Source: Candidatus Thalassarchaeaceae archaeon
Lineage (GTDB): Archaea; Thermoplasmatota; Poseidoniia; Poseidoniales; Thalassarchaeaceae
Assembly: GCA_023700245.1 (NCBI GenBank)
Contig: JAJPRE010000001.1
Coordinates: forward strand, 2,022 to 66,021
Length of the DNA stretch: 64,000 nt
Reading direction: 5' to 3'
This document shows positions 8,397 through 19,221 of this stretch, one piece after another (the first letter of the stretch is position 1; the number at the start of each line of letters is the position of its first letter). The notes under the pieces were generated by a model that saw nothing but the letters and a program-made list of their open reading frames with translations, had not been told where the DNA came from and made no database searches. Both the position numbers and the translations under genes were made by a program.

Positions 8397-9690
8397 ATTT
8401 AGTATCTTTTTTTATTACTATCAGTTATATTCTATTACATTTGGAGACGTAATCATGAGGTTCTTTACATTCAGTCGTTTTATGTATCAAATACTCAGGA
8501 AAAAGGAGGCAAATCTAACTTGGATTCAATCTCAAGGGCTTCTTGCAGTAAAGCTATCTCAAATATTTGCACTAAGGCCAGATTTATTATCAATTGAGAA
8601 ATGTAAACAACTTCAAACATTGTATGGGCAAGCTTCTACAATTCCAACTGAGAATGTTCAAAGTATATTGAAAAGCAAAGCGTCTAAAAAATTTCATGAT
8701 TCTATTGAATGGTTTGATGATACTCCATTAGCTGCAGCATCCGTAGGGCAAGTTCACAGGGCCCGACTAAAAACAGGTGAGGAAGTCGTTGTAAAAATTA
8801 TAAAAGCAAATCATAAGAATAAATTCCAAAAAGATGTTTACAGAATGAAGAGATGGCTAAAAATTCTAATATTATTTTCACCCAAATTAAGAAAAGTTGG
8901 TAACCCAATTGCTCTATTAAATCACGTTGAAGATTATACTTTGAGAGAACTTAATCTAAATAATGAAATTAAGGGTGGAAATAAATTAAAACAAATTCAA
9001 TCCGATTTAGAAGATAATTTTCCAATGCCAAGACTCAAATTTCCAAAATATTATGAAGAATTATCAAATGAAGATGTTTTAGTATCGGAATTTATAGATG
9101 GAATAACATTAGAAGAAGGAATTAGGGCTCAAAACCTAGATTGGGATTATTTAATTGAATTATTTAGAATCCATGGAGCATATATGTTTGGAGTCGGAAC
9201 TTTCCATGGTGACCTCCATCCTGGTAATTGTATAATTGATAAAGATGGAAACTTTGTATTCATAGATAATGGTGCGATTTGTGATTCTCCAAAACGTATC
9301 AGCCTCTCCCTTTTCAGATTCTTTGAGCACCTATCTGCCGATTCTAAAGATGATGCATACGAAGCTCTACTAACTCTGGCCGAATCACGACCTAGTGAAA
9401 ATAAAATCATCAAATTTAAAGGAAAAATGTCTGATATTTATGACGGATTTGCAGACAGATCTGTTGGAGAACAAAGCCTCACAGAAGTTATGATGAGGAC
9501 AGTGAGAGCAGCAGTAGAAGAAGCAGGTGCAGATTTTGGAGAAGAAGCATTTCCCATTATTAGATCACTTATGTACATGGATGGATTAGTAATCCGAACC
9601 CATCCAGAAGTAAAATTAATCCATGAAATGGGCCCATCTTTGGATGAGTTCAGAGAAGGATTAGGATTAGGAAAGGAGATATTAGTATGA
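8386..9690 (+). CDS. ABC1/UbiB (AarF) atypical kinase
   Basis: VKLSQIFALRPDLL, PLAAASVGQVHRA, VVVK, FHGDLHPGN, FIDNG. Start may instead be ATG 8455. Confidence 0.9.
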   Translation: MIIRFSIFFYYYQLYSITFGDVIMRFFTFSRFMYQILRKKEANLTWIQSQGLLAVKLSQIFALRPDLLSIEKCKQLQTLYGQASTIPTENVQSILKSKASKKFHDSIEWFDDTPLAAASVGQVHRARLKTGEEVVVKIIKANHKNKFQKDVYRMKRWLKILILFSPKLRKVGNPIALLNHVEDYTLRELNLNNEIKGGNKLKQIQSDLEDNFPMPRLKFPKYYEELSNEDVLVSEFIDGITLEEGIRAQNLDWDYLIELFRIHGAYMFGVGTFHGDLHPGNCIIDKDGNFVFIDNGAICDSPKRISLSLFRFFEHLSADSKDDAYEALLTLAESRPSENKIIKFKGKMSDIYDGFADRSVGEQSLTEVMMRTVRAAVEEAGADFGEEAFPIIRSLMYMDGLVIRTHPEVKLIHEMGPSLDEFREGLGLGKEILV

Positions 9691-10421
9691 CAGAATCAAA
9701 AGTTGCATGGATAATAGGAGCTACTGGAGGAATTGGAAAACATGTTGTTTCTAATTTGAATAAAAATGGTTGGACAATAGTTGCGAGTGCTAGGGATGAA
9801 GATAGTCTTAAAGAATTATCAAATGATAAAGATATCTTCACAATGCCTGTAGATGCAAGAAATGAAGCAGAAATGCAAGAAACTGCTAAAGCAATAAAGC
9901 AACAACATCAAAAAATTGATGCTGTAGTTCTAGCTGTTGGCTCAATTTTCCTACGTCCAACGCACGCAACAACTTCTGAACAATTCATGGAAACAATCAG
10001 TCAAAATCTTTTGACAGCGCATAATGCCATTAGCTCAACTGCTAGGATAATGATGAAAGATAAGGGTGGCAGAATAATACTGTTCTCTTCAGCAGCAGCT
10101 ACTGTTGGTATGCCTAATCATGGTGCAATTGCAGCAGCCAAATCTGGGCTTGAAGGTTTAGCAAGAGCAGCCGCAGCAACATATGCAAAAAGAGGAATCA
10201 GAATTAATGTTGTATCTCCCGGACTTACAGATACTCCATTATCTGCAAATCTATTATCTTCAGACGCAGCCAAAGAAATAAGCAACAAAATGCATCCAAT
10301 TGGAAGATATGGGATGGCTTCTGAAGTTGGGGATGTAGCTTCTTGGTTGGCTAGTGATGCACCAGATTGGATCAGTGGCGAAACTATCCATGTAGATGGT
10401 GGATTGTCAAACTTAAAATAA
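9687..10421 (+). CDS. SDR-family oxidoreductase
   Basis: GATGGIG, IRINVVSPG, SGETIHVDGG. The catalytic YxxxK appears as IAAAK (Tyr absent). Confidence 0.9.
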   Translation: MTESKVAWIIGATGGIGKHVVSNLNKNGWTIVASARDEDSLKELSNDKDIFTMPVDARNEAEMQETAKAIKQQHQKIDAVVLAVGSIFLRPTHATTSEQFMETISQNLLTAHNAISSTARIMMKDKGGRIILFSSAAATVGMPNHGAIAAAKSGLEGLARAAAATYAKRGIRINVVSPGLTDTPLSANLLSSDAAKEISNKMHPIGRYGMASEVGDVASWLASDAPDWISGETIHVDGGLSNLK

Positions 10422-12742: not shown

Positions 12743-13330
12743 TCAATTTAATATATTTTTTATTTCATCAACAATTTCTGATGTTGGCCAATAAGTCTTA
12801 GAAGACCAGATTAATTTTCCTGTTTCGTCCATAATTTGTAAAGTAGGGGTAGAAGGATTTCCGAATGAATCATAAATGGAGTATTGACTTTCTTGCCCTG
12901 TATCCAAATTTACTATCGGTGTATTTTCCTGCGGTAATGCAAGAGTCCAAGAAACTGGATTAGAGGAATTCTTGCCATAAGCTTCTTCTACATAAGATGG
13001 AGATTCAAAAGATGAATATCTGTGAATACTGAGGACTGAAGAATTACTTATGTTTCCACTCTCAACTTCATCCGAAATCATATCAGTCCAAGAATGACAT
13101 CCTCTACAACCAGCAGCTACCCAAATTAATAACACAGGACCTTCGGATACATATTCTTGTAAATCCAAAGCAGTATTATTACTATCATCACCCATTATGG
13201 GTGAACTAAATGATATTCTTTCTGGAGCAGGAGCAATTTCTTCAGGCTCAATCATCTCAGACTTTTCTTCAACACATCCAGATAATGAACCAACAATAAT
13301 AATTAGTGAAAAGAAAAATGCTATTTTCAT
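12743..13330 (-). CDS. Thioredoxin-fold (CxxC) lipoprotein
   Basis: Lipobox LSGC, WVAAGCRGC, and cis-Pro region STPTLQIMDETG. Confidence 0.7.
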   Translation of the reverse strand: MKIAFFFSLIIIVGSLSGCVEEKSEMIEPEEIAPAPERISFSSPIMGDDSNNTALDLQEYVSEGPVLLIWVAAGCRGCHSWTDMISDEVESGNISNSSVLSIHRYSSFESPSYVEEAYGKNSSNPVSWTLALPQENTPIVNLDTGQESQYSIYDSFGNPSTPTLQIMDETGKLIWSSKTYWPTSEIVDEIKNILN

Positions 13331-14895
13331 AATTCAACCTTCATTTTAGATTTAATCTTAGGTTTTTTAATGTCTTCAAACCAAGTGTCTACGCCATTCC
13401 AATCTGGTTCTATTCCTAAATCTGCACAAATTAACTTAGCACTTATTCTACCACTTTCGAAAATAGTCGGAAGGCCACTCCCAGGGTGTGTTCCTCCTCC
13501 AACTAAAAATAAATCATTTAACTCCTCAAAACGATTTTGAGGCCTTCTCCACAACATTTGATCTAGTCCATGAGCTAAATTGAAAACTGCACCTTTGTAG
13601 ATATCTCGTGCACCCCAATCATCAGGAGTGACAATTGTTTCTGAAACAATATGTTCCTTCAAATCATCATATCCTAGTTTTTTCATGGTTTCGAGGACAA
13701 CATCTCTATATTCATGTTTTATTTCTTCCCAATTTATTGAATCATGTACATTAGATACCGGAACTAGGACATATATTGTTGAGTGGCCTTCTGGAGCCAT
13801 TGATGGATCTATCAAACAAGCATTTTGAACGTACAATGATGGATCATCCCACGTAATTTTATTTTCAGTAACATCCTTTAGATTAGTATGATAGTCTTTA
13901 GAAGCATAAATTTGATGATGATCTAAATCGTATTTCTTATCTATGCCAAGATATAGCATGAATGTCGAGCATGAATAAGATTTTTCATCTAATTTCTTAT
14001 TTGACCATCTCTTTCTAAGCTTATCTGGAATTAATCCCTTCATCCCAGTTGCGAAATCAACATTCATAACATATTTTTTTGCTGTATGGATTCCAGTGCC
14101 TGTTTTTACTCCAACTATCTTTTTACCTTCGAAAATACATTCCTCGACTGGCTCATTAAGGCATATCTCTACTCCTAATTCTTTAGCTAAAACTCCCATT
14201 CTCTCGGTTACTGTTCCAAGGCCACCTTTGGCATGATATATGCCATACTCCAACTCTAAAAATGATAGTATTGTGAATAAACTTGGGGCCTGAAATGGAG
14301 ACATACCCAAATACTTCGTTTGAAAACTCATTGCTAATTGCATCCTGTCATCTTCAAAGAATTTGGATAAATCTGATGCAACACTTCTCCATGGACGAAG
14401 AACTTTAGCAACTCTAAGTGCACGTTTATTTGCCAAATCTGTCCAACTTGTCCAGGGAGAATTGAGACAATTTTTAGACAACTTTAATTTTTTCCTGTTA
14501 TCTATTACATAATTTCTAAATCCTTCTGCATCTTTTTCACCGCACAGTTCTTTGATTTGTTCTACCATATATTCAACATCAGTACTTGCGTTTAAGGAAC
14601 CCCCTTCTCCGAAAACCAACCTATAATTAGGATCGAGTCTGATTAAGTTTAATTCTTCGTGGGCATCCTTTCCAATTGCCTGAAATATCTCTTCAATAAT
14701 TTCGGTGTAATGGAAAAAGGTAGGTCCGTTATCATAATGGAAACCATCCTTTTCGAAGACCTTGGTTCTTCCTCCCACGGAACTAGTTTTTTCTAATAAT
14801 TTGACCTTAAGGCCTGCTTTTGCTAATAGTAAAGAACATGCTAGACCACCAGGTCCGGCGCCTACTATGATTACGTCGTTATCTGAAGACTCCAT
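13327..14895 (-). CDS. crtI: Phytoene desaturase (CrtI family)
   Basis: IVGAGPGGL FAD motif, YDNGPT, QTKYLGMSPF, SCSTFMLYLG, LFLVGGGTHPGSGLPTIFESG. Start moved to ATG 14895, about 22-28 nt below a TATTAAG box. Confidence 0.92.
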   Translation of the reverse strand: MESSDNDVIIVGAGPGGLACSLLLAKAGLKVKLLEKTSSVGGRTKVFEKDGFHYDNGPTFFHYTEIIEEIFQAIGKDAHEELNLIRLDPNYRLVFGEGGSLNASTDVEYMVEQIKELCGEKDAEGFRNYVIDNRKKLKLSKNCLNSPWTSWTDLANKRALRVAKVLRPWRSVASDLSKFFEDDRMQLAMSFQTKYLGMSPFQAPSLFTILSFLELEYGIYHAKGGLGTVTERMGVLAKELGVEICLNEPVEECIFEGKKIVGVKTGTGIHTAKKYVMNVDFATGMKGLIPDKLRKRWSNKKLDEKSYSCSTFMLYLGIDKKYDLDHHQIYASKDYHTNLKDVTENKITWDDPSLYVQNACLIDPSMAPEGHSTIYVLVPVSNVHDSINWEEIKHEYRDVVLETMKKLGYDDLKEHIVSETIVTPDDWGARDIYKGAVFNLAHGLDQMLWRRPQNRFEELNDLFLVGGGTHPGSGLPTIFESGRISAKLICADLGIEPDWNGVDTWFEDIKKPKIKSKMKVEL

Positions 14896-15009
14896 ATTAC
14901 AAAGCGATGTCGAAGACTTAATACTTATAATGAGTCGTTTTAAAAATAGAGAATGAATTGTTGTGGTTACAAACACCCATATAAAAGGGGGATGGAAAAC
15001 CACGGCGCC

Positions 15010-16968
15010 ATGTATAACTCAAAAGTTATGATAGCCTTGCTAATGACCGCCAGTCTTGCATTGTCTCCGATCGTTGTCGCAGATGATACCCAAGACATAC
15101 CTACGAATGCCGTTAATACAGGCAATCACGATTCCTTAGTAGCAGCTTTGAGTCATGCAGGTTTAGTAGATACTTTGTCCGGTGAAGGCCCCTTTACAGT
15201 CTTCGCCCCCACAGATGAAGCATTCGCAGCTGCTGGTATCGATCTCTCAACTTTCGATACTGATGCGGAGAATGCAACATTAACTGATATCTTACTATAC
15301 CACGTCTACTCTGGTGCTGTAAATGCAGCAGATGTAACTGACGGTCTGACTGTTCAAATGGTCAACGGGGACGATGCTACTTTCTCAGTTACAAATGGAA
15401 CAGTAATGGTTGGCGGTGCTACAGTAACAACAGCTGATGTTATGGCTTCAAATGGAGTGATTCACGTAATTGATACAGTTCTAATGCCACCAGTGCCTTA
15501 CACAGGTGTAGGAATTTGTTACAACTCAGTTACTCACATGATTGCAGCAGGATCCACAATGGAAGAATGTAACTCTTACATGTACGTAGAGAACTATTCA
15601 ATGGGCGGTCAATCAATCACAGGATGTTACAACACGGCATCCCATGCTTTGACAGAAGTTTCACAAACAATCTGTGAATCATACACATGGACTGCTCCTG
15701 TGGATATACCAACATCAGCAATGGCTACAGGTATACACACATCATTAGTAGCAGCATTAAGTGCAGCAAATCTGGTAAGCGCTCTACAAGCAGATGGGCC
15801 ATTTACAGTATTCGCTCCAACTGATGCGGCGTTTGCAGCAGCAGGAATCGATTTGAGCGCATTTGTAACAGATGAAGAAATTGCAACTCTTGCAGACATA
15901 TTGACCTATCACGTTGTATCAGGTCAAGTAATGTCTACTGATTTATCCGACGGAATGACTGCTACAGCATTGAATGGAGATGATTTAACTTTCACAATTT
16001 CTGACGGTACAGTAATGGTCGACGGAGCAATGGTCACTCTTGCAGATGTACCATCTTCAAATGGAGTAATCCACGTAGTAGATGCAGTATTGATGCCACC
16101 CGCAGATCTCGTGGACATACCATCAACAGCTATATCAACTGGAATCCATACTTCATTAGTCGCCGCTCTTACAGCTGCTAACTTAGTATCAGCATTACAA
16201 GCAGATGGACCATTTACAGTATTCGCACCAACTGACGCAGCATTCACAGCAGCAGGAATCGATTTAGATTCCTTTGTAACGGATGAAGAAATTGCAACTC
16301 TTGCAGATATTCTGACTTATCACGTAGTAGCGGGACAGGTTTTGTCCACAGACCTAACTGATGGTATGACAGCAACAGCATTGAACGGAGACACTCTAGA
16401 CTTTACTGTTTCAACAGATGCAGTTACAGTTTCAGGAGCAACAGTAACATTAGCGGACGTATTAACTACTAACGGTGTAATCCATGTAATTGATACAGTA
16501 TTAATGCCACCAGCTGATGTAGTAGCTTTACCTGATGGATGTGATTATCTTGTTTCTGTAGACGATACAGGATATGCTTTCGATCACACTGTGCTAAACG
16601 TAGCAGTTGGAGAGACAGTTTGCTGGGTCTGGACAGATTCAGCAATGGCTCACAATGTTGCTGAAATTGCAGAGGAAGGAGACACCATGAGGATGATAGG
16701 CGGATTATACAGTGGAGCAGCTGCTACAACTGTAGACTATAGATTAACATTTGATGAAGATCAGACATTTAACTACGTCTGCGAACCTCATGCATCTATG
16801 GATATGGCTGGAAAAGTCATTGTTGGCTCTGGAGTAGAAGCAGTTCCTGAACCAGTACCCGTTGAAGACTCTGATGCTACACCAGGATTCGCATCCTCAT
16901 TAGCAATAGTATCTATTCTTGGAGCAGTTTTAATTGCTCAAAGAAGGAATAACGAAAGGTCCGATTAA
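15010..16968 (+). CDS. Surface protein: signal peptide, 3 fasciclin (FAS1) domains, type-1 copper cupredoxin domain, PGF-CTERM anchor
   Basis: Three GPFTVFAPTDxAF...ILxYHV...NGVIHVxDxVLMPP units; AHNVA...YVCEPHASMDMAG copper ligands; TPGF + TM + RR tail. TATAAAA at 14980-14986 favours start 15010. Confidence 0.9.
   Translation: MYNSKVMIALLMTASLALSPIVVADDTQDIPTNAVNTGNHDSLVAALSHAGLVDTLSGEGPFTVFAPTDEAFAAAGIDLSTFDTDAENATLTDILLYHVYSGAVNAADVTDGLTVQMVNGDDATFSVTNGTVMVGGATVTTADVMASNGVIHVIDTVLMPPVPYTGVGICYNSVTHMIAAGSTMEECNSYMYVENYSMGGQSITGCYNTASHALTEVSQTICESYTWTAPVDIPTSAMATGIHTSLVAALSAANLVSALQADGPFTVFAPTDAAFAAAGIDLSAFVTDEEIATLADILTYHVVSGQVMSTDLSDGMTATALNGDDLTFTISDGTVMVDGAMVTLADVPSSNGVIHVVDAVLMPPADLVDIPSTAISTGIHTSLVAALTAANLVSALQADGPFTVFAPTDAAFTAAGIDLDSFVTDEEIATLADILTYHVVAGQVLSTDLTDGMTATALNGDTLDFTVSTDAVTVSGATVTLADVLTTNGVIHVIDTVLMPPADVVALPDGCDYLVSVDDTGYAFDHTVLNVAVGETVCWVWTDSAMAHNVAEIAEEGDTMRMIGGLYSGAAATTVDYRLTFDEDQTFNYVCEPHASMDMAGKVIVGSGVEAVPEPVPVEDSDATPGFASSLAIVSILGAVLIAQRRNNERSD
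15700..16520 (+). repeat. Intragenic tandem duplication (FAS1 repeats 2 and 3, 411-nt period)
   Basis: GTGGATATACC at 15700 recurs as GTGGACATACC at 16111; near-identical protein with many synonymous differences. Confidence 0.85.
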
Positions 16969-17348
16969 TTACTTAATCTGACTTCAACCCAACCGTCAAG
17001 TTCCCTTGCTGTGTGAACAGCGAGGGGACTTGGCCTTCTCATTTTACCAAGTAATCTTCCATACATTGGAAAAAGAGGGAATGGCGACCATTCCTTTACT
17101 TCTCCACTATCTAAATCATATTTTGTTTGATGGAGTGGACAAGTTATACATCCATCTTTCACCTTTCCCCCATACGCTAAAGGCCAAGCCATATGCCTAC
17201 AGAGAGCATCAGTTACACGTATTTCTTCATCTTCTTTTAGGATCATAATGCTACGTAAACCAATATTTTTCATTTTTTTCTTTCCTGATTTAATTTTATC
17301 AGATTTAATTACTCGATGCCATACATCACTATCCAAGGGTAAACTCAC
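16965..17348 (-). CDS. Rieske [2Fe-2S] ferredoxin
   Basis: CRHM...CPLH ligands, YDLDSG; GTG start. Confidence 0.88.
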   Translation of the reverse strand: MSLPLDSDVWHRVIKSDKIKSGKKKMKNIGLRSIMILKEDEEIRVTDALCRHMAWPLAYGGKVKDGCITCPLHQTKYDLDSGEVKEWSPFPLFPMYGRLLGKMRRPSPLAVHTARELDGWVEVRLSN

Positions 17349-18213: not shown

Positions 18214-19221
18214 TTATTTCCAAAGTCCTAATAGTGAAAATGCAAAACCAATCTTTTTCATGAAGCCTAGATTTAACTTTCTTGATAAAACATCACCATG
18301 TCTATTTTCTGCTTCTGACAATATTTCAGAGTAAACTGCACAAATTATGGACGGAGAAACTCTTGAATCTTCATTCAATAACGGAATTAATCTTTTTGCA
18401 TTATCCCTATGAATTTTAGTTCTAAAAATATAATGACGCATAAATGATTTCCATGAGTCTTTTTGCGGTAACTGAGGATCATCCAAATTAGTATAATCTA
18501 TTCCAAATCTTGTTAATTCTTCAGTAGGAAGATATACTCTTCCCTTATTGTAATCTTCTTGAATATCTCTCAATATATTTACCATTTGAAGGAAAATACC
18601 CATTTCTTCAGCATGTTCTCTTGCATCAGGATTAGAATACCCATAAATTTCTATCAGAACTAAACCTACTGTTGAAGCAACTTTGAAACAATAGCCCCTA
18701 ACTTCCTCAAAAGTCTTGTAATTAGTAGGAAATAAATCATCCTCCATTCCATCAATTAACATTTCCAAATATTCAATATTTATTGAAAAATTATTAATCG
18801 TATCTTTAAGTGCAATAAATATTGGATGGACAACCGATTCATTATTTCTGATTCTATTTAGATTATCCCTAAACCAAAGTAGGGCCAATACCCTTTGTAA
18901 ATGAGAAAAATCACCATTTACTGGTTCTTCTTGCTTTTCAATTGCCAATGATATTGCCCTGTCTTCAGATCTCATTTGCAGATTCATTGATGTCTCATTA
19001 GATAAATAATTAAGATTAGGTAACCAATCTCCATCTACTACATCATCCACTCTTCTGCAAAATGCATATACGGCATAAACAGATCTTCTTTTTTTGGTCG
19101 GTAGATGTCTGAAAGATCGTAAGAATGATGTTGATGATTTACGTGTTATTTCTTCACAATACTTGTAAGCCTCTTCGATGGAATCATTTGATAATTTTGG
19201 TTCACTATTAATCAGAACCAT
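18214..19221 (-). CDS. crtB: Phytoene synthase
   Basis: YAFCRRVDDVVD, YCFKVASTVG, QMVNILRDIQED, GRVYLP. Confidence 0.92.
   Translation of the reverse strand: MVLINSEPKLSNDSIEEAYKYCEEITRKSSTSFLRSFRHLPTKKRRSVYAVYAFCRRVDDVVDGDWLPNLNYLSNETSMNLQMRSEDRAISLAIEKQEEPVNGDFSHLQRVLALLWFRDNLNRIRNNESVVHPIFIALKDTINNFSINIEYLEMLIDGMEDDLFPTNYKTFEEVRGYCFKVASTVGLVLIEIYGYSNPDAREHAEEMGIFLQMVNILRDIQEDYNKGRVYLPTEELTRFGIDYTNLDDPQLPQKDSWKSFMRHYIFRTKIHRDNAKRLIPLLNEDSRVSPSIICAVYSEILSEAENRHGDVLSRKLNLGFMKKIGFAFSLLGLWK

Follow-up and report, generated by a model that had tools for sequence, protein, structure and literature searches.

What does a surface protein do that joins a row of fasciclin (FAS1) domains to a blue-copper domain, and does its gene belong with the carotenoid gene, crtI, that stands back to back with it? 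The question is raised by a gene at 15010..16968 (+) of the window, by which we mean the whole 64,000-nucleotide stretch analyzed here (contig JAJPRE010000001.1 of assembly GCA_023700245.1, forward-strand positions 2,022 to 66,021). Its host belongs to the Thalassarchaeaceae (MGIIb, Poseidoniales) and is an uncultured Marine Group II ocean archaeon; the G+C content of the window is ∼36%, and archaeal housekeeping genes (Pus10, L21e, KsgA-like) flank the gene. An earlier note on this DNA, made from the sequence alone, had read the product as a cell-surface carotenoprotein wired to a one-electron carrier. The explanation preferred here, to which we give an even chance of being right, is a lipid-anchored, halocyanin-like electron carrier with a FAS1 binding stalk, encoded in a proteorhodopsin (PR)-associated gene set of sunlit-ocean Poseidoniales.

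Taken from its first in-frame ATG, the open reading frame (ORF) spans 14953..16968 (+). The likely functional start is 15010, because a TATA-like box (ATATAAAA, at about 14979-14986 on the plus strand and about 25 nt upstream of this ATG) makes transcription likely to begin no earlier than either of the two preceding in-frame ATGs. The resulting 652-residue protein, referred to here as FAS1-Cu, is delimited by the ORF, by Pfam and NCBIfam matches and by its orthologs. Residues 1-24 (15010..15081) were assigned by inspection to a signal peptide, with probable cleavage after ..VVA and before DDTQDIP; the signal-like pattern is conserved in both Poseidoniales families, and the AlphaFold2 (AF2) model has a helix at residues 4-17. 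Pfam Fasciclin (PF02469) matches in three stretches (E 9.6e-100, 329.8 bits against a cut-off of 22), in line with the three domains first proposed. FAS1 domain 1 comprises residues 26-161 (15085..15492; Pfam, AF2 pLDDT about 78-88), domain 2 residues 232-365 (15703..16104; best Pfam stretch 244-363, with a structure match), and domain 3 residues 369-502 (16114..16515; Pfam, sequence and structure matches). A type-1 copper cupredoxin domain (residues 506-608, 16525..16833) follows, and an acidic Pro/Glu-rich linker (residues 609-623) and a PGF-type C-terminal anchor (624-652) complete the chain (16834..16965), all on the plus strand. The mature ectodomain is strongly acidic, with a pI of about 4.05 and 82 Asp and Glu against six Lys and Arg residues, and contains N-glycosylation sequons. 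In the AF2 model (mean pLDDT 71, pTM 0.31) the FAS1 and cupredoxin domains reach 75-90 and are arranged as beads on a string. The ORF holds the sole FAS1 domains of the window's genome, in which one further small cupredoxin is found.

The cupredoxin domain is matched by Pfam Copper-bind (PF00127) over residues 514-605 (E 8.8e-13, 49 bits against a cut-off of 21.2), and its AF2 model matches the folds of pseudoazurin, plastocyanin, and amicyanin. The type-1 site announced in the earlier note is complete: His548 (nt 16651), Cys591 (16780), His594 (16789), and Met599 (16804), the last three spaced as Cys591-x2-His594-x4-Met599, are invariant in 30/30 aligned orthologs and in a C-terminal alignment of orthologs of both families, taken from 40 fetched loci. 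The Cys511/Cys538 pair is likewise invariant in the 30 aligned orthologs and probably forms a disulfide. As far as the Pfam match and the alignments place a conserved type-1 copper site on the protein, the description of it as a one-electron carrier is upheld as well. The best NCBIfam match of the domain is the halocyanin model TIGR03102 (52 bits, E 6.2e-14), and on sequence grounds the domain is best termed halocyanin-like and not, by model score, a member of TIGR03102. With halocyanin and other small archaeal membrane blue copper proteins it has in common the cupredoxin fold, the His plus Cys-x2-His-x4-Met site, an extracytoplasmic position, and a membrane tether. Unlike halocyanin, FAS1-Cu places ∼500 residues of FAS1 domains before the copper domain and ends in a C-terminal PGF-type anchor, where haloarchaeal halocyanins are anchored via an N-terminal lipobox; its gene lacks a linked respiratory partner, and its distribution tracks proteorhodopsin, not the CuA oxidase.

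The copper domain and the anchor behind it also occur without FAS1. Among the nearest representatives of this domain out of 1.84 billion, 46 of the 150 listed were scanned with Pfam. Nine of these 46 combine FAS1 with copper, one combines CARDB, two GSDH (glucose/sorbosone dehydrogenase), and one GH18 with copper; two have two copper domains and a type IX secretion system (T9SS) tail but no FAS1, and many are proteins of 890-1344 residues with the C-terminal copper domain alone. Tails were inspected in 41 representatives: five are stand-alone proteins of 160-193 residues consisting of signal peptide, copper domain, and PGF anchor, 18 have a variant C-terminal anchor behind the same copper domain, and 40 keep the Cys-x2-His-x(2-4)-Met motif. 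Since the cassette is found on FAS1 arrays, on other ectodomains, or by itself, the simplest history is that a PGF-anchored, halocyanin-like protein gained varied N-terminal ectodomains, FAS1 included. FAS1-Cu would have originated by addition of FAS1 repeats before a cassette of cupredoxin, acidic linker, and C-terminal anchor.

Two further observations concern this cassette. The large proteins of 890-1344 residues that end in the same cupredoxin are otherwise Pfam-less (P0235, P0239, P0243, P0246, P0251-P0257, P0263, P0265, and others), and the variant anchor behind such cupredoxins reads Pro-Ser-Ile/Val-Gly/Ser-Phe, followed by a hydrophobic stretch and a run of Arg; from this pattern, it may be a second sorting signal akin to PGF-CTERM. 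Giant cupredoxin-bearing surface proteins were also seen in PR-less Thalassarchaeaceae that have no FAS1 fusion (2687-residue ORFs on G031:C39 and G013:C22, and a 4642-residue ORF on G079:C24), and gene 515 of SIMO Bin 19-2, in the part of the PMC9723583 supplement available, is a protein of the same kind.

The tail of FAS1-Cu consists of Pro625-Gly626-Phe627, a hydrophobic stretch, and Arg-Arg. The PGF triplet is invariant in the 30/30 alignment and in the C-terminal alignment of both families, the tripartite arrangement of PGF, hydrophobic helix, and basic end lies at the extreme C-terminus, and the same genome encodes archaeosortase A (ArtA, TIGR04125) at G000:C47, with 85.9 bits against a cut-off of 75. 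The PGF-CTERM model TIGR04126 gives the tail 19.4 bits (E 6.1e-4), below its cut-off of 24.5, and Pfam PF18204 was not matched by the protein at E ≤ 0.01. The proposed PGF-CTERM archaeosortase-type signal is thus borne out by the invariant PGF tail and by the ArtA gene, but not by the score of the dedicated model. Taken with the signal peptide and the acidic ectodomain, the PGF-type anchor and the presence of ArtA agree with the claim that this is a cell-surface protein. As a separate observation, PGF-type tails occur in only six ORFs of the window's genome (82% complete), FAS1-Cu among them.

Known PGF-CTERM/ArtA substrates, such as the Haloferax S-layer glycoprotein, have the same Pro-Gly-Phe, hydrophobic helix, and basic end in a cell with ArtA. 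They differ in that the cargo here is FAS1-cupredoxin, the tail falls below the model cut-off, and processing is predicted only. The resemblance of the two anchors nevertheless invites the idea that FAS1-Cu is a major structural, S-layer-like envelope protein of Marine Group II, for which its high transcription (described below), its acidic ectodomain with sequons and its place among so few PGF-tailed ORFs could also be quoted. An essential wall protein should be universal, yet the fusion was not found in many PR-less Poseidoniales genomes that are at least 90% complete; the number of FAS1 domains is variable, and the beads-on-string AF2 model, with its low pTM, gives no hint of a lattice. A structural role of this kind is therefore judged highly improbable.

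Fusions of this type are widespread in the order. A query with the copper domain and tail (residues 495-652) matched in 113 of 151 Poseidoniales genomes, namely in 44/74 of its own family (f1), 0/2 of f2, and 68/74 of f3; among 201 genomes sampled from the whole phylum, no strong match fell outside f1 and f3. The number of FAS1 repeats ranges from one to about five or six among orthologs. Clusters with both FAS1 and Copper-bind are many in a large protein database (444-980 residues), and are named only “uncharacterized surface protein with fasciclin repeats,” “fasciclin domain-containing protein,” or “hypothetical.” A literature search returned no text that pairs “fasciclin” with “Marine Group II” or “Poseidoniales,” and a term search of Orellana et al. 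2019 (PMC6864105) gave no mention of halocyanin, cupredoxin, or copper. The statement that the fusion is uncharacterized therefore stands.

The neighborhood of the gene was compared over 40 loci fetched from 20 genera, whose ORFs were clustered jointly with those of the window and of two named relatives; the upstream gene is visible at 35 fusion loci. In the window this gene is crtI (13327..14895, minus strand; TIGR02734, E 1e-135), a phytoene desaturase of the crtI family whose ATG lies at 14895, and the spacer at 14896..15009 is exactly 114 bp, as the earlier note had said. Its claim of a shared promoter region holds for the common spacer; the spacer itself contains two separate, back-to-back TATA-like boxes and no single shared promoter. 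The crtI box lies at about 14922-14933 on the minus strand, and both boxes are about 25-30 nt from their own ATG, which suggests leaderless transcripts for both genes and a putative promoter function for each box. A TATA-like box about 25-35 nt before the ATG is present in all ortholog upstream regions printed, including those of Marine Group IIa (MGIIa) genes that lie directly behind enolase.

Conserved linkage to crt genes, the lack of which the earlier note had named as an outcome favoring a plain adhesin, is largely absent. The upstream gene is crtI at only 4/35 loci (the window, L002, L004, and L044 of genus g13), that is, in the window's genus and close relatives plus the one g13 locus. 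It is proteorhodopsin (Pfam Bac_rhodopsin) at another four (L052 and L055 of g6, L054 and L056 of g12), enolase at 13, all MGIIa (in L066 with a small 82-residue ORF in between), a nitroreductase at three (g5), topoisomerase VI-B at three (g4), an unannotated family (cluster 71) at three (g17), and a gene unique to the locus at five. Neither crtI nor rhodopsin is next to the fusion in any of 18 MGIIa loci. In five larger assemblies, fusion and crtI are 95-110 kb apart where both are on one contig, as is the case in four, and fusion and proteorhodopsin 43-424 kb apart in four, with separate contigs in the fifth. Thalassarchaeaceae neighborhoods draw on a common stock of genes (GTP cyclohydrolase II, AhpC, TrmB-like, ABC1, short-chain dehydrogenase/reductase (SDR), Rieske, proteorhodopsin, crtI block, fusion), and the region looks like an old neighborhood reshuffled by inversions. 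The position of crtI is a lineage-specific arrangement and not a conserved operon-like link.

A broader association is seen with proteorhodopsin. Strong orthologs were defined by E ≤ 1e-28, and four hits seen or judged to be copper-only or non-FAS (G002, G017, G043, G049) were dropped. Across the 151 genomes, 80 have both fusion and PR, five the fusion only, 11 PR only, and 55 neither. The PR-less genera g2, g3, g8, g10, g11, g14, and g20 have no fusion, and in four mixed genera exactly the same genomes have both or neither, with both in 6/12 of g6, 3/9 of g9, 1/7 of g7, and 5/10 of g17. Fusion and PR are divergent neighbors in eight genomes (G011, G047, G051, G073, and G111 of g6; G085 of g7; G061 and G129 of g12), and lie on different contigs in g17 and g4. 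Five PR-less genomes that are 85-97% complete gave no FAS1 hit (0/5), while four of the five keep other cupredoxins. The rhodopsin of the window's organism aligns best to green-light proteorhodopsin. What these counts show is that the fusion belongs to a PR-associated gene set, probably one of the sunlit ocean, rather than that the two genes are specifically paired.

Transcription has in effect been reported before, under another name. In the available text of Damashek et al. 2021 (PMC9723583), a “halocyanin” is among the most highly transcribed Thalassarchaeaceae genes and is enriched together with proteorhodopsin, while crtI is highly transcribed with transcripts depleted in dark incubations. 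The portion of the supplement at hand identifies this halocyanin as gene 1221 of SIMO Bin 19-2, a 776-residue “Beta-Ig-H3 fasciclin” protein; its N-terminus is the same as that of the window protein, and it lies divergent from rhodopsin gene 1220 at a distance of 150 bp. A second bin's copy adjoins a Rieske ortholog. A term search of the main text did not find the word “fasciclin,” and the gene is treated there, in the parts available, as “halocyanin, electron transport” (PMC9723583). The FAS1-Cu gene was also found in metatranscriptome runs of four studies. In run X1, word depth over near-identical RNA contigs is 55-65 for the FAS1-Cu gene and 2.8-4.5 for crtI and the two genes behind it, a contrast that is consistent with PMC9723583 but only a weak hint, since contig depth is a poor measure that cannot rank genes. 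Gaps between RNA contigs (e.g., 18362-18835) and the few contig joints carry no information.

The FAS1 array points away from algal carotenoid carriers and toward adhesion proteins as nearest relatives. By phmmer, the FAS1 domains match TGFBIp at 8.6e-54 and a Rhodobacter FAS1 protein at 6.4e-31, compared with 3.9e-16 for AstaPo1 (8C18). The AF2 domains match TGFBIp, periostin, and single FAS1 structures (Foldseek E 1.3e-29 for the best adhesion match), and the target-normalized TM-score is 0.87 for BIGH3 FAS1-4 against 0.53-0.74 for the AstaPs. By sequence and by predicted fold, then, AstaP is no nearer to these domains than adhesion-type FAS1 is. The best sequence and fold matches come from the multi-FAS1 adhesion proteins (TGFBIp/BIGH3, periostin, insect fasciclin I; bacterial Fdp, MPT70), which are likewise extracellular with FAS1 domains in tandem, but all are without a cupredoxin or a PGF anchor, whereas the window protein is archaeal and encoded in a PR-associated gene set.

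These relationships raise the alternative that FAS1-Cu is mainly an adhesin or aggregation factor, in which the FAS1 array binds algae, particles, or sister cells and the cupredoxin is a pedestal with little catalytic importance. Its nearest solved relatives (TGFBIp, periostin, fasciclin I, the Rhodobacter FAS1 protein) would suit this role, as would a repeat number that varies as in surface stalks, and the same copper-and-anchor cassette is joined to CARDB and to very long unannotated ectodomains as well. A flocculation role is cited for the fasciclin of A. brasilense in the available part of PMC10949492, and that of PMC2668756 discusses an adhesin role for FAS1 proteins of marine flavobacteria. 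Against this, the four ligands and the probable disulfide pair are invariant and the motif persists in 40/41 cassettes, a sign that selection maintains a functional metal site. The very high transcription and the co-variation with PR reported in the accessible text of PMC9723583 are also untypical of an accessory adhesin. Adhesion as the main function is accordingly considered unlikely.

AstaP supplied the model for the proposed carotenoprotein. According to the part of PMC10147662 available, the AstaP FAS1 domain holds carotenoid in a tunnel whose residues are conserved in many FAS1 proteins; binding is a neofunctionalization, a cyanobacterial FAS1 protein that is 36% identical does not bind, this protein is the only non-algal homolog tested, and no sequence rule predicts binding. 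Given the lack of such a rule and FAS1 domains nearer the adhesion type, carotenoid binding is neither supported nor refuted by the sequence. AstaP (PDB 8C18, 22IY) resembles FAS1-Cu as a secreted FAS1 protein with a link to light, being induced by photo-oxidative stress where the FAS1-Cu gene is tied to PR and crtI by position, distribution, and expression; unlike the window protein, it is a soluble protein with one FAS1 domain (two in one paralog) and no copper domain. With a crtI link that is not conserved, with FAS1 domains nearer to TGFBIp than to AstaPo1, and with the fold comparison against AstaP, itself among the checks the earlier note had suggested, pointing the same way, the carotenoprotein idea has been weakened. 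Another link to light or phototrophy emerges in its place, through PR adjacency, co-occurrence, and co-expression.

Other light-linked FAS1 genes are known from bacteria. In the available text of PMC9897461, Sphingomonas AAP5 has an operon of an NAD(P)-binding protein and a fasciclin beside its xanthorhodopsin operon, with the same light-induced pattern; the gene order PR, FAS1-Cu, SDR, Rieske in genus g12 echoes this pair. Two light-induced fasciclin genes (mpk70/mpk83) are described for Mycobacterium kansasii in the part of PMC9861118 at hand, and the A. brasilense fasciclin (Fdp), which mediates flocculation, is under the RpoE-ChrR photo-oxidative stress system as cited in the accessible portion of PMC10949492. 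By analogy, the last case would fit aggregation as well as a pigment role. Although these genes resemble the present one as FAS1 genes beside a co-expressed rhodopsin or under light control, the proteins are single-domain and without copper, and any known role is aggregation; the resemblance is contextual, not mechanistic.

It is on this evidence that a surface carotenoid- or retinoid-binding protein working with PR or the crt pathway has to be weighed. FAS1 tunnels would hold the cell's own or algal carotenoid for photoprotection, delivery, or use as an antenna, and the copper would re-reduce the pigment or sense redox state. The divergent neighbor is crtI at four of the 35 loci and PR at another four, and PR and fusion are divergent in eight genomes (g6, g7, g12) and in the published bin; the presence of the fusion tracks PR, transcripts co-vary with those of PR, and crtI transcripts drop in the dark, in the part of PMC9723583 available. 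AstaP proves that FAS1 can bind carotenoid, with tunnel residues widely conserved (PMC10147662, as far as accessible), and the Sphingomonas and M. kansasii genes (PMC9897461, PMC9861118, in their available parts) are parallels. Set against this are FAS1 domains no nearer AstaP than adhesion FAS1, the one tested non-algal homolog that does not bind in the available text of PMC10147662, the large distances from crtI and PR in the larger assemblies, and the complete lack of adjacency in MGIIa. The occurrence of the copper-and-anchor cassette on unrelated ectodomains means that the copper domain needs no pigment explanation, and the Rieske gene has the same phyletic pattern, so that co-occurrence may mark only a surface-ocean ecotype. 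A pigment-binding function appears distinctly unlikely on balance.

A more far-reaching form of the same idea makes FAS1-Cu a working partner of PR phototrophy, its FAS1 tunnels catching surface carotenoids, whether the cell's own or algal xanthophylls; this we regard as improbable. In this same scenario the pigment would then be handed to the membrane as antenna, retinal precursor, or sunscreen, and the copper would re-reduce pigment radical cations formed in light.

For the preferred explanation, a tethered electron carrier, the terminal oxidase is an obvious point of reference. COX1 was found in 38 of 41 genomes of the family, and in all four loci inspected COX1 has as its neighbor a COX2 whose CuA motif is intact; three of these loci belong to genomes that lack both PR and the fusion. 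Because COX1 and COX2 with CuA are present in genomes that have neither, the oxidase is independent of the fusion protein. A role as oxidase donor in PR-bearing cells is possible but not indicated. Dehydrogenases of the GSDH type are possible electron donors, a faint hint that comes from the GSDH-copper fusions and from a weakly GSDH/PQQ-like gene two genes downstream of the fusion in seven MGIIa loci.

Several results weigh against an electron carrier of this kind and have to be set beside the evidence for it. No partner was identified. The data do not call for the general respiratory-carrier role assumed in the available text of PMC9723583. A search for COX1 in the window's genome (82% complete) gave no hit; because COX1 is present in all three other genomes of the genus, this is read as an assembly gap. 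The 52 bits of the copper domain do not reach the 93.8-bit cut-off of the halocyanin model TIGR03102. The ties to crtI and PR, and the light-linked bacterial FAS1 genes, fit a pigment or light role at least as well. The co-occurrence itself needs qualification: the 85 strong orthologs are defined by an E-value threshold, of which only 35 were verified, from the loci fetched, to be genuine FAS1 fusions; the genomes counted are related and so non-independent, incomplete as metagenome-assembled genomes, and uncorrected for phylogeny; and physical adjacency in eight genomes inflates the count of fusion and PR together. Finally, the Rieske gene, intended as a control, has the same genus pattern as PR over the 151 genomes, with the same 5/10 genomes in g17 and none in g2, g3, g7, g8, g10, g11, and g20; the association with PR is therefore not specific to the fusion gene.

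With these points taken into account, the electron-carrier explanation can be put in the following form. FAS1-Cu would be a “FAS1-halocyanin,” Sec-exported, probably processed by ArtA and lipid-anchored at the outer face of the membrane. The membrane-proximal cupredoxin, which would bind copper, most likely exchanges electrons one at a time with a redox partner located at the membrane surface. The FAS1 domains, two to six in number and three in this protein, would form an acidic, outward stalk that binds a partner, be it a protein, a glycan, or another cell. The gene is highly transcribed, putatively from a strong promoter of its own, and is one of a set kept with PR in sunlit-ocean lineages and missing with PR elsewhere. 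Domain composition, the conservation of ligands and anchor, phyletic distribution, synteny, and transcription are observed; that the protein binds copper, transfers electrons, and is lipid-anchored, and what its stalk binds, are inferred.

Between FAS1 domains 1 and 2 lies a Cys-rich insert of 70 residues (162-231, 15493..15702 on the plus strand; Cys170, 187, 206, and 222). It is conserved to at least 90% among 30 orthologs, and its AF2 pLDDT is below 50. A Pfam search of the insert at E ≤ 5 returned only noise, with Macin as top match (E 0.11). The insert contains the pattern Cys-Tyr-Asn … His … Cys-x-Ser-Tyr as two half-repeats, and also occurs in L046 and at the N-terminus of the L048 protein.

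The genes around FAS1-Cu include further candidates for carotenoid and redox chemistry. Downstream of crtI on the minus strand are an ORF of 195 residues that is CxxC-containing, lipoprotein-like, and of no family (12743-13330), and an ABA4-like membrane protein (PF14108, 12286-12732). The block of crtI, CxxC ORF, and ABA4-like gene is intact in all relatives that have it (L002, L004, L005, L008, L009, L044), suggesting an unstudied carotenoid-related trio. On the other side, a small, soluble-type Rieske [2Fe-2S] ferredoxin recognized by Pfam is convergent with FAS1-Cu and overlaps its stop codon (16965..17348, minus strand); in five genera (g1, g13, g12, g16, g22), which represent both families, a Rieske gene adjoins the fusion or lies close to it. 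A crtB-like gene of the phytoene/squalene synthase family (18214..19221, minus strand; PF00494, E 1.6e-62) follows; some relatives have it flanked by Rieske and GBBH-like genes, a position from which it is absent in L002, L003, and L005. An 18-pair hairpin and a T-rich run are located at 16995-17034 (+), just past the FAS1-Cu stop codon and within the coding sequence of the convergent Rieske gene; in run X1, one RNA contig continues through it to 17168.

In g16 and g22 (MGIIa loci L066, L067, L072), the Rieske gene is grouped with an SDR and an FAD amine-oxidase-like gene, and only a few genes separate this triad from the fusion; the window has an SDR at 9687-10421, about 4.6 kb upstream of the FAS1-Cu gene. 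The possibility that the MGIIa amine-oxidase-like gene is crtI was ruled out: only the N-terminal FAD motif is common to both, and its best model, HpnE, gives 80 bits against a cut-off of 283. Downstream of the fusion, seven MGIIa loci (L066, L067, L069, L070, L074, L075, L076) encode a conserved 308-residue membrane-anchored ectodomain protein of no known family (cluster 2, not in L076) and a 350-residue protein with faint similarity to glucose/sorbosone dehydrogenases (cluster 14). Both clusters gave sub-threshold hints only (HmuY 0.012, GSDH 0.031, PQQ family 9e-4), and neither had a BLASTP match in the window's genome.

FAS1-Cu is uncharacterized; its parts, FAS1, cupredoxin, and PGF anchor, are already known, and it is their combination that is new. 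The reading of existing transcript data is changed by three aspects of this combination: the FAS1 array makes up four fifths of the protein, the copper domain is a cassette that is reused on the anchor side of other proteins, and the gene is kept or lost with PR rather than with the terminal oxidase. If a partnership with phototrophy were true, secreted FAS1 proteins would be widespread, overlooked pigment carriers of the light response in archaea and bacteria, which would explain why, in Marine Group II, Sphingomonas, and Mycobacterium kansasii, FAS1 genes are light-responsive or have rhodopsin or carotenoid genes as neighbors. The protein is a cloneable candidate for linking light-driven energy capture, surface redox chemistry, and possibly pigment handling. 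Even if it is merely a tethered electron carrier or an adhesin, it would be a defining surface marker of the sunlit-ocean lineages of the Poseidoniales.

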